NCBI GenBank assembly: GCA_900544905.1 | Contig: UQXF01000001.1 | Span: 19,504 to 83,503, forward strand | Direction of reading: 5' to 3' | Source of the DNA: an uncultured Clostridium sp. | Lineage (GTDB): Bacteria > Bacillota > Clostridia > Lachnospirales > Lachnospiraceae | DNA: 64,000 bases | In this document: piece by piece, positions 14,053 to 60,735 of the stretch | How positions within the stretch are numbered: position 1 is the stretch's first letter | Layout: each line of letters begins with the position of its first letter | Notes under the pieces: generated by a model | Databases searched by the model: none | The model's input: the letters and a program-made list of their open reading frames with translations, nothing else | Told to the model about the DNA's origin: nothing | Position numbers and translations under genes: made by a program

Positions 14053-14090
14053 AAAAGGACTGGCTTAACCCACCAGTCCTTTTTTATTTT
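14053..14090 (+). terminator. Rho-independent terminator of rpsT
   Basis: The hairpin ggactgg-cttaaccca-ccagtcc is followed by ttttttattttt. Confidence 0.6.
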
Positions 14091-14098
14091 TATAGCAG

Positions 14099-14127
14099 TT
14101 TACAAATACCTCAAATAATGTTATAAT
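14099..14127 (+). promoter_or_regulatory. Sigma-A-type promoter (TTTACA-N17-TGnTATAAT) driving a short forward-strand transcript
   Basis: The -35 tttaca is at 14099-14104, followed by a 17-nt spacer. An extended -10 tgt-tataat is at 14119-14127. No protein-coding ORF lies downstream on the forward strand. Confidence 0.4.
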
Positions 14128-14134
14128 CTAATCA

Positions 14135-14224
14135 CAAAAGGAACAATCGCCCACAAGGGGGTTGACCAGTTAACAAAATAGCAATGCCACCCTGCACCGG
14201 TCAAAGTACAAGGGTGGTTTTTGC
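14135..14224 (+). ncRNA. Putative ~90-nt antisense small RNA, a candidate type I antitoxin. It ends at a terminator shared with the convergent toxin gene.
   Basis: It is bounded by a strong promoter at 14099-14127 and the terminator hairpin ccaccct-N17-agggtgg plus ttttt at 14187-14222. Its 3' end overlaps the 3' UTR of the minus-strand small toxin ORF. Confidence 0.3.
14187..14222. terminator. Bidirectional terminator hairpin shared by convergent transcripts
   Basis: The stem ccaccct / agggtgg has a 17-nt loop. It is followed by ttttt on the forward strand and by attttgtt on the minus strand. Confidence 0.45.
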
Positions 14225-14233
14225 TATGTATGA

Positions 14234-14323
14234 CTACTTACAAAACGTAAAAACGAATGTAAGCAATGCCAAAAGGAAAAGACCAAAGGTCATCAAGTCC
14301 TTAAAATCAAAATGATTTTTCAT
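14234..14323 (-). CDS. 29-aa hydrophobic peptide resembling the BsrE/BsrH (holin-like) type I toxin family
   Basis: The product is MKNHFDFKDLMTFGLFLLALLTFVFTFCK. It aligns with B. subtilis BsrE (...QALMLMLAIGSFIIALLTYIEK) over the conserved core LM..xG.F..ALLT[FY][VI]. GGGGGTGA sits 6 nt upstream of the ATG. Its own promoter (TTGTCA-N17-TGgTAGAAT) is at about 14365-14395 on the minus strand. The ORF is too short to appear in the ORF track. Confidence 0.5.
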   Translation of the reverse strand: MKNHFDFKDLMTFGLFLLALLTFVFTFCK

Positions 14324-14471
14324 AGGCATCACCCCCATTCTTTTGGAATGAGGTCAACACACCCTGTAACACGATTGCTCCATGGCTAATTCTACCATAT
14401 TCTCTTAATTCTGACAAACCCTGTATAGCCACGAAAACGTATTATTTACCTGTCACATGTAAACATTTTTA

Positions 14472-59880: not shown

Positions 59881-60735
59881 TTACTCTTCCTCCGGGTTCT
59901 CCATATCCGAGGCCTTCCGAATCCGTACCTTTTTAATCATCCGGTCCTCCCATTCCAATGCCTCAAAGAGAAACCCCTGGTAAGCTATCTGAATACTGTC
60001 CTGCTCCTCCGGAAGTCTTCCGTATTCGTAAAGCATGAACCCATTTACCGTGTCAATATCTTCCTCTGGAAACCGGATGTCAAACAAATCCTCCAATTCT
60101 TCGAGCTCCGTGCTTCCCCTGACAATATAGCCATCCCCGGCTGCAAGCTTCATAATATCAATCTCTTCTTCGTCATGCTCATCCAGAATATCCCCCACAA
60201 TCACCTCTAAGATATCCTCCATGGCAACAATTCCCTCAGTCTGTCCATATTCATCCACTACAATTGCCATATGGTTCTTGCTTGCCTGCATGTCATTAAA
60301 CAATTTGCTGATTTTCTGGGTAGGATGGACGTAAAAGGGCTCACTTACCACCTTTCGCACATTCTGTCTTGCATCCTGCATATAAGCTGCCACTGCATCT
60401 TTTATATGTAAAATTCCAAGAATATTATCCACATCCTCCTCAAAAACCGGATATCTGGAATAATTATTTGCCAGCATAACCTCCAGTGCTTCCTGTATAT
60501 CCATGTCCGCCTCAATGCAGACCATCTTCTGCCTTGGGGTCATAACATCCCTTGCTTCCTTATCGCCAAATGCAAACACATTCGTAATCATTTCCGCCTC
60601 ATCCGGCTGGATTGCTCCCTGTTCATGGCCTTCCTCGATAATCGATAATATCTCTTCCTCTACTGCATCTGCCTGCTCTTCACTATTTTTTTTATTGAAA
60701 AATGCCTTAAGGTTACCGGGCCCATTGATTGCCAT
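59881..60735 (-). CDS. CBS-pair plus CorC_HlyC domain protein (CorC/HlyC-family magnesium/cobalt transporter-associated protein)
   Basis: It has tandem CBS domains and a C-terminal transporter-associated domain. The start was trimmed to the M at 60735, with AAGAGGGA upstream. Confidence 0.7.
   Translation of the reverse strand: MAINGPGNLKAFFNKKNSEEQADAVEEEILSIIEEGHEQGAIQPDEAEMITNVFAFGDKEARDVMTPRQKMVCIEADMDIQEALEVMLANNYSRYPVFEEDVDNILGILHIKDAVAAYMQDARQNVRKVVSEPFYVHPTQKISKLFNDMQASKNHMAIVVDEYGQTEGIVAMEDILEVIVGDILDEHDEEEIDIMKLAAGDGYIVRGSTELEELEDLFDIRFPEEDIDTVNGFMLYEYGRLPEEQDSIQIAYQGFLFEALEWEDRMIKKVRIRKASDMENPEEE

Follow-up and report, generated by a model that had tools for sequence, protein, structure and literature searches.

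In a stretch of 64,000 nucleotides from an uncultured Clostridium sp. of the Lachnospiraceae (assembly GCA_900544905.1, contig UQXF01000001.1, positions 19,504 to 83,503; hereafter the window, numbered from its first letter), what occupies the 430-bp gap between rpsT and holA? A preliminary description, made from the sequence alone, had proposed that the gap holds an unannotated type I toxin–antitoxin (TA) locus, in which a short peptide resembling BsrE and BsrH of Bacillus subtilis is encoded opposite a convergent antisense small RNA. We found that the locus is best explained as a self-contained type I TA cassette of the BsrE/BsrH/ComI (Pfam Hol_Tox) kind, inserted between holA and the rpsT terminator, and we give this reading a probability of roughly 0.85. 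The gap encodes a small hydrophobic protein that appears to be under selection at the protein level. It also contains a cis-encoded antisense RNA gene predicted to overlap the toxin transcript, the overlap following from covariation in a long helix (P1) of the toxin messenger RNA (mRNA). Toxicity would follow from membership of the peptide in its family. The proposed BsrE/BsrH-like layout was supported by the codon-level signal of the reading frame, by profile matches of the peptide family, by a match to the BsrG RNA model and by the joint occurrence of peptide and antisense RNA.

The peptide gene and its family

The 29-codon open reading frame (ORF) that had been reported on the minus strand was present. 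Among 38 distinct core sequences of the family, the ratio of nonsynonymous to synonymous polymorphism (pN/pS) was 0.17, and the entropies of the three codon positions were 0.35, 0.10 and 0.71, the third being the most variable. The N-terminus, which is polar (KNHFDFKD in the window), varies in length by whole codons only (MKH, MKNH, MNNNY, MDNKNH), and the other two reading frames of the ORF are closed. Judged by this pattern of change, the ORF is a gene under purifying selection as a protein. The search of related genomes that had been suggested as a check showed both this codon-level signal and an antisense promoter and terminator accompanying the peptide ORF.

A Shine-Dalgarno (SD) sequence, GGGGGTGA, is located at 14329-14336 of the minus strand; the spacing to the ATG is 5 nt, not 6 as had been stated. 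Nearly all family copies have an SD ahead of the ATG, and by eye in the alignment GGGGG/GGAGG and CCUC(A)/CCUCC/CCUUC vary jointly across them. An in-frame upstream ATG (14338) gives a 34-residue reading. Because this ATG falls within the SD in relatives and has not been conserved there, we take the product to be 29 residues long. The 34-residue reading is found in NCBI nr under the name 'MAG TPA: Putative Holin-like Toxin (Hol-Tox) [Caudoviricetes sp.]'. Thus the claim that the locus is unannotated stood for the plasmid copies described below, and did not stand for this longer reading. In two copies (L064:2740-2999 and L070:2755-3013) the SD is mutated, with GGATGTGG in place of GGAGGTGG, and these copies may be decaying; the second ORF of contig L051 is N-terminally truncated.

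Profile searches related the family to Hol_Tox (PF16935), which was matched at E <= 0.01 by 52 of 67 members. Ten tested relatives scored 18-24.1 bits, three of them above the gathering threshold (23.8-24.1 bits), and homologues on plasmids reached 22.6 bits. The best NCBIfam model was ComI (NF052249, an equivalog), matched by 36 of the 67 members at scores far under its cut-off. Other matches were to phrog_9488 and, very weakly, to phrog_3488 'holin' (E 0.09-0.26). A 30-residue 'putative holin-like toxin' of the B. subtilis plasmid pBS32, which is ComI, served as a control; it scored 73.3 bits with NCBIfam ComI and 37 bits with Hol_Tox, and phrog_9488 was matched both by ComI and by the present family. 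On these profile links we place the peptide in Hol_Tox as a divergent branch; its own score does not put it there, and the assignment is by transitive homology.

Predicted toxin mRNA and antisense RNA

The predicted toxin RNA (250-256 nt) has a minimum free energy of -94.4 kcal/mol (z = -7.0), and its fold contains P1, a long helix between the first ~20-22 nt and a segment ~70 nt past the hairpin that lies between the two genes. Covariation was assessed in a MAFFT alignment of 52 distinct copies, from which RNAalifold recovered the helix. In P1, 98% of cells were paired, compared with 49-61% when the partner columns were slid, and six pairs showed compensatory changes, compared with 0-3 in the slid controls. 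None of 500 shuffles reached the observed paired percentage, covariation score or number of compensatory cells, a control that overstates significance among related sequences, with the structure derived from the same alignment. The conserved U-G and G-U pairs of P1 would turn into A-C mismatches if the opposite strand were folded, and P1 therefore belongs to the toxin strand. Moreover, P1 can be under selection only if the toxin transcript spans the whole antitoxin gene, which argues that the overlap of the two RNAs is not limited to a shared terminator. On this covariation the long toxin mRNA probably extends to the far side of the antitoxin gene. The preliminary description had the two RNAs share one terminator and overlap at their 3' ends. 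The hairpin is indeed terminator-like on both strands (on the toxin strand in 41 of 52 copies, with at least 5 of the 8 bases past the stem being T), and what changed is the end of the toxin mRNA, which P1 places ~70 nt further, across the whole antitoxin, an arrangement also known from bsrG and bsrE. Short and long forms of the toxin RNA may both exist, as suggested by the terminator-like hairpin; in the 3' untranslated region (UTR) of the toxin, this hairpin would act either in recognition or as a weaker, terminator-like element.

A similar architecture was found with the Rfam model of BsrG (RF01412). In a 1.2-kb search, its full 259 positions aligned to 14383-14110 of the minus strand with 28.7 bits (E = 1.1e-4), short of the gathering threshold of 55, and the SD, the AUG, the CCACCC element and the 5' and 3' arms were in register. 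The match recurred at another copy (L048, 27 bits). The comI locus of pBS32 (L180:9918-10195; record 59918-60195) also gave a full-length match under the threshold (33.9 bits). As a genuine comI locus too remains under 55 bits, the BsrG model is narrow. This match points to a comI mRNA built like those of bsrG and bsrE, and perhaps to an antisense partner of comI. The sub-threshold BsrG matches fit the literature, in which the RNAs of bsrG and bsrE are described as structurally alike and probably of common ancestry, and loci resembling bsrG are noted to encode peptides of the BsrE/H type in some cases (PMC6562991).

Within the predicted mRNA, the SD is ~80% paired in the ensemble, its alternative partners being the upstream CCUC, a segment inside the ORF and the CCACCC of the 3' UTR. 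RNAalifold proposed the pairing with the ORF-internal segment, in which one pair has 14 compensatory cells; since the ensemble predictions split, we keep it as a mere alternative to the local anti-SD hairpin. The toxin's own promoter had been placed at about 14365-14395. The motif TTGTCA-N17-TGnTAGAAT exists, at 14389-14417, which is ~25 nt away and partly beyond the interval that had been reported. Of 69 family copies, 49 have a promoter-like site at the equivalent position, reading TAGAAT, TAAAAT or TACACT, and in 48 of these the TG is present.

On the plus strand, the near-consensus promoter proposed for the antisense RNA was found with no ORF downstream. Its site is kept at the equivalent place (at least 9 of 12 matches) in 55 of 64 family copies, mostly as TATAAT or TATATT, and it is closer to consensus than the toxin promoter. 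The predicted convergent RNA of ~90 nt folds with -30.6 kcal/mol (z = -2.5). Its consensus consists of two hairpins, the second being a CCACCC/GGGUGG-U5 terminator, and the previously described hairpin and T-run were present both in the window and, as stem and U-run, in 47 of 47 antitoxin sequences. One copy has a compensatory pair in this hairpin (CCGCCC/GGGCGG), and a loop motif, ACUUUG, is conserved at 14202-14207 of the minus strand. A covariance model built from the antitoxin (R1) had a single match in the window (14136-14226, 91.9 bits). Among 60 loci from viral contigs, R1 matched the opposite strand 10-15 nt past the ORF stop in 57, an association that favours the antisense gene put forward earlier. 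R1 found no match in 25 holA loci without the cassette. Compared with the Bacillus comI locus, the antitoxin showed no detectable nucleotide or covariance-model similarity (R1 score 8.5 bits, not significant).

Table 1. Coordinates of the predicted elements in and around the rpsT–holA gap (window numbering).
Feature	Position	Strand	Remarks
rpsT/holA bidirectional terminator	14053..14083	.	12-bp stem, terminator scan; kept in relatives without the cassette
Apparent lineage-specific insertion filling the rpsT–holA gap	14089..14471	.	begins just past the holA stop codon, ends at the T-run of the rpsT terminator
Predicted antitoxin promoter	14099..14127	+	TTTACA, 17-nt spacer, TGnTATAAT; 11/12 matches + TG
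Predicted antitoxin small RNA, ~90 nt	14134..14226	+	5' stem-loop 14140-14167, variable linker, intrinsic terminator 14179-14226
Predicted long-form toxin mRNA, ~250 nt	14134..14383	-	5' UTR, ORF and 3' UTR spanning the whole antitoxin gene
P1 3' arm	14140..14158	-	CCUUGUG.GCGAUUGUUCC, then UUUU; complement of the antitoxin 5' stem-loop
Hairpin CCACCCU...AGGGUGG	14187..14222	.	arms 14187-14193 / 14211-14217, TTTTT 14218-22; plus-strand antitoxin terminator
Putative toxin ORF	14234..14323	-	29 codons + TAG, reads MKNHFDFKDLMTFGLFLLALLTFVFTFCK; polar N-terminus, then one hydrophobic helix
Ribosome-binding region	14329..14353	-	anti-SD CCUCAUUC 14353-14346, loop, SD GGGGGUGA 14336-14329; read from sequence
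P1 5' arm	14362..14381	-	GGAGCAAUCGU..UACAGGG; pairs with 14140-14158
Predicted toxin promoter	14389..14417	-	TTGTCA (14417-14412), 17-nt spacer, TG-extended TAGAAT (14394-14389); 10/12 matches + TG, promoter scan

Distribution, known systems and rival explanations

The core of the cassette (14099-14417, ~320 bp) extends from the -35 element of one convergent promoter to that of the other. In 70 non-identical full copies, conservation begins at the toxin -35 and ends at the antitoxin -35, and the flanks are unrelated. Across 52-70 non-identical copies in unrelated surroundings, each element keeps its register, and by this comparison its conservation exceeds chance. Mobilizable plasmids of Enterocloster bolteae carry copies with 76-77% DNA identity, detected by blastn. 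For example, pCbo51 (NZ_CP053230.1) contains two tandem copies (L028:6001-6599) with diverged peptides (…FVFTYIR and …FIYLICH), and only the first of these is found in the plasmid of strain ATCC BAA-613 (NZ_CP022465.2; L027:876-1143); the copies are unannotated in both records. A scan with a back-translated pattern identified at least 374 relatives in metagenome contigs, mostly from human gut, and IMG/VR viral contigs yielded 60. An exhaustive phmmer search of a representative library gave 158 clusters (50% identity) at E <= 1e-3, most of them called with wrong upstream starts. Three peptide variants of a related cluster (that of MNNNYFDFKDLMAFGMFILALLTFVLTFCK) each occur on at least 1000 contigs, and four contigs contain two copies (L028, L051, L109, L117). 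By contrast with this abundance in IMG/VR, blastn of the module against the phage genomes of the INPHARED set found no match. A tblastn search of phages and plasmids with the peptide also returned nothing, which was an artefact of low-complexity masking, as blastn then retrieved the plasmid copies. No second copy was detected within the window by tblastn, blastn or the covariance model.

Other copies lie in varied surroundings. Neither rpsT nor holA is encoded in any of 150 further loci (L029-L178) fetched through the peptide, and 123 flanking proteins belong to 105 different Pfam families, among them ribosomal proteins, KdpA, integrases, AbiH and YafQ. Nothing pointed to a very recent transposition, the nearest other copy having at most 89% DNA identity. 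Nor was there a sign of a transposable element, such as a miniature inverted-repeat transposable element: in 63 copies the flanks beyond the promoters share no direct or inverted repeats above control, and neither terminal repeats nor target-site duplications were seen. P1 is an inverted repeat internal to the cassette, and the conserved G-U pairs it holds point to selection at the RNA level. The chromosomal copy in the window is most likely a selfish passenger.

Two minor observations concern the contigs themselves. The 34-residue ORF is on 23 contigs, and all 10 of the contig places shown (L109-L118) start at the ORF, inside the cassette; two of these contigs have a second copy 0.5-1.4 kb away (L109:1-221 and 1395-1652; L117:1-207 and 567-812). 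This suggests that assemblies break at the cassette repeat and that clustered copies are common, and partial gene calling at contig ends could contribute. In another contig, a transfer RNA gene (L072:1552-1625, 67.8 bits) is located ~300 bp downstream of a cassette copy, possibly an integration hotspot context.

Several known systems resemble the locus. Like bsrE/SR5 of the P6 prophage and bsrH/as-bsrH of the skin element, it has a peptide of 29-30 residues with one membrane helix and an FG..(L/I)..LLT-type core, and convergent genes in which the antitoxin pairs with the toxin 3' region, a pairing that is predicted here. The toxin mRNA is predicted at ~250 nt, compared with 255-285 nt for bsrE and bsrH, and that family also has copies on prophages, plasmids and chromosomes (PMC6562991). 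In contrast, the host belongs to the Clostridia (Lachnospiraceae) rather than the Bacilli, the window peptide is under the Pfam cut-off, and the polar segment is N-terminal where BsrE and BsrH have a C-terminal lysine tail. The predicted convergent 3' overlap of ~90 nt is slightly under the ~100-140 nt of the bsrE/SR5 and bsrG/SR4 types, and we regard it as the same arrangement; a main helix of 5' and 3' mRNA parts, which characterizes these types, is represented here by P1. With bsrG/SR4 of the SPbeta prophage, the locus shares this 5'-3' helix, an SD hairpin, the CCACCC element and a target for the antitoxin in the 3' region, whereas the BsrG peptide belongs to the TxpA family and not to Hol_Tox, and the final terminator hairpin of the BsrG model has no counterpart in the window. 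ComI of pBS32 is a plasmid-borne, 30-residue member of Hol_Tox with a similar sub-threshold BsrG match and phrog_9488 in common, and its sequence similarity to the present peptide is limited to the helix core. In hok/Sok of plasmid R1, 5'-3' long-range pairing keeps the full-length toxin mRNA closed, and a small cassette is found on plasmids and in many chromosomal copies; however, neither its peptide nor its RNAs are related to those of the present family, and the site of Sok pairing is the 5' leader rather than the 3' UTR. Modules of Clostridioides difficile (CD2517.1/RCd8 and others) are type I TA systems of Clostridia, often prophage-borne and in several copies (PMC6563280). Their toxins have 34-59 residues and, according to the same review, no sequence similarity to B. 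subtilis families (PMC6563280).

A number of results weigh against a type I TA module of this kind. The profile search against Hol_Tox that had been recommended was successful for the relatives (52 of 67, as above) and not for the window peptide itself, whose sole Pfam match was Hol_Tox with 13.5 bits (E = 0.068), below the gathering threshold of 23.3. With NCBIfam ComI, the window peptide scored 12.9 bits and its relatives at most 20.7, with a cut-off of 55, and hhalign of the family with ComI was weak (P = 0.0012, probability 20%). The charged residues of the peptide are N-terminal, without the lysine-rich C-terminal tail usual in type I toxins. The predicted antitoxin (~90 nt, two stem-loops) is roughly half as long as SR4 and SR5 (163-180 nt), and in distinction from these it stops short of the ORF; antitoxins of this type have 160-200 nt (163-200 nt in bsrE/SR5 and bsrH/as-bsrH) and four stem-loops. 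To these are added the sub-threshold BsrG score and the relatedness of the sequences used in the P1 shuffles. In two copies, L056 and L071, the ORF is intact (in L056 the hairpin as well), and similarity is lost over the antitoxin 5' half and promoter. Each is either an orphaned toxin gene or a breakpoint left by assembly or recombination; orphan ORF copies would be unexpected for a strongly toxic peptide, although assembly artefacts are possible. Finally, the toxicity of BsrE-type peptides is no more than mild, and ComI is said (reportedly by Konkol et al. in 2013) to be a competence inhibitor rather than a killer.

This last point bears on the best surviving alternative, in which the same architecture would serve a small regulatory membrane protein like pBS32 ComI, its level being set by the antisense RNA and its position at comEC-holA being meaningful. 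ComI is the best NCBIfam match for the family and itself a Hol_Tox member, its locus has BsrG-like RNA features, and the cassette in the window lies directly downstream of comEC-holA. We nevertheless consider this explanation unlikely. The ComI scores of the family remain at or below 20.7 bits against a cut-off of 55, holA is in none of the 150 further loci, and no competence-protein family is among the 25 most frequent flanking Pfam families. With neither holA nor frequent competence families near other copies, the comEC neighbourhood looks accidental, and spread over plasmids, phages and intergenic sites together with tandem duplication fits a selfish TA module better. Far less probable is a remnant of a phage lysis (holin) gene with an incidental antisense RNA. 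The 60 viral contigs, the very weak phrog_3488 'holin' match (E 0.09-0.26) and the mention of holins in the Pfam family name speak for it, but the peptide has 29 residues and a single hydrophobic segment, endolysin is not a regular neighbour, the antisense RNA gene has been conserved together with the ORF, and most copies are outside recognisable phage contexts. Equally hard to credit is that there is no gene at all, only a chance ORF in a structured non-coding element or a plus-strand RNA that is the rpsT 3' UTR: the ORF is very short and the region rich in RNA structure, but the codon-level signal (pN/pS 0.17, in-frame indels, alternative frames closed) already contradicts this, rpsT has a strong terminator of its own ahead of the antisense promoter, and rpsT is absent from all 150 further loci found through the peptide.

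If the locus is a type I TA cassette, its operation may be pictured as follows. The toxin mRNA of ~250 nt, from 14383 to ~14134, would adopt a closed form in which P1 locks both ends and the SD is paired with the upstream CCUC or other anti-SD segments, and translation would be poor. Over its whole length the antitoxin (~90 nt) would be complementary to the toxin 3' UTR, with the 3' arm of P1 included, and it would not overlap the ORF. First contact would probably be made at the complementary hairpin loops, through the ACUUUG / CAAAGU motif (a YUNR-like U-turn). The resulting duplex of ~90 bp could be cleaved by RNase III and the mRNA degraded, as modelled on bsrE/SR5, bsrG/SR4 and txpA/RatA (PMC6562991). 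When the antitoxin is depleted, the peptide would be made and its single helix inserted into the membrane, and growth would be slowed or stopped. On plasmids and phages, such a cassette would stabilise the element.

A wider proposal is that the cassette is an autonomous selfish unit of ~320 bp, present in many intergenic sites, plasmids and phages of gut Lachnospiraceae without transposase, end repeats or target duplications, and under a hybrid control in which a hok-like 5'-3' lock has as its 3' arm the target of a minimal two-hairpin antitoxin. By pairing there, the antitoxin would release the lock and at the same time tag the mRNA for cleavage. We offer this tentatively and regard it as rather doubtful. 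If true, the lineage would be among the most abundant experimentally untouched type I TA lineages of the human gut, with possible roles in mobile-element stabilisation or abortive infection.

The kind of system is already known, as is the Hol-Tox label on the 34-residue reading. [quoted passage not shown] (PMC2887945, as cited in PMC6563280). In our literature search, no publication contained the peptide motif, and we found neither the antitoxin RNA nor the Lachnospiraceae lineage described. What is new here is a complete candidate BsrE/H-like module in gut Lachnospiraceae, with a toxin, an antitoxin RNA, the two promoters and an mRNA fold that shows covariation, belonging to a lineage on plasmids, phages and chromosomes of these bacteria. 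It also provides an annotation rule for a gene pair left unannotated by RefSeq in the E. bolteae plasmid records examined and, in E. bolteae ATCC BAA-613, a culturable host with a homologous copy. The general understanding of type I TA systems is unchanged by the locus.

The holA–rpsT junction

The gene order around the locus is spoIIP, gpr and rpsT on the plus strand, the 430-bp gap, and holA and comEC on the minus strand, all five genes being confirmed by Pfam. A HolA search gave 26 orthologous loci in metagenome-assembled genomes (MAGs) of Lachnospiraceae. Only the window and L001, which has a HolA 98% identical to that of the window, carry the insertion; the gap of L001 is 433 bp with the peptide present, and it is presumably the same species. 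In L002 (HolA 94% and S20 99% identical) there are 67 bp between the rpsT and holA stop codons, and in most other relatives with rpsT located the gap is 58-107 bp, approximately one shared bidirectional terminator hairpin. By eye in the alignment, ~383 bp (14089-14471) stand in place of ~18 bp of L002, directly past the holA stop. These comparisons are most parsimoniously explained by an insertion in the lineage of the window.

The rpsT terminator is a separate strong terminator upstream of the antisense promoter. It predates the cassette and is the next terminator for minus-strand read-through. As the insertion is located 3' of holA, comEC-holA transcripts would have to cross the cassette before reaching any terminator; having lost direct access to it, this read-through would enter the cassette.

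The junction may be a recurrent landing site, given that another Lachnospiraceae MAG (L014:1032-1849) has a different insertion of ~800 bp in its holA-rpsT gap. By eye, the product of that insertion resembles a response regulator with a LytTR-type output domain. In a further locus (L004:4972-5147), the holA-rpsT gap is 175 bp, GC-rich and contains internal inverted repeats, unlike the 58-107 bp found elsewhere.

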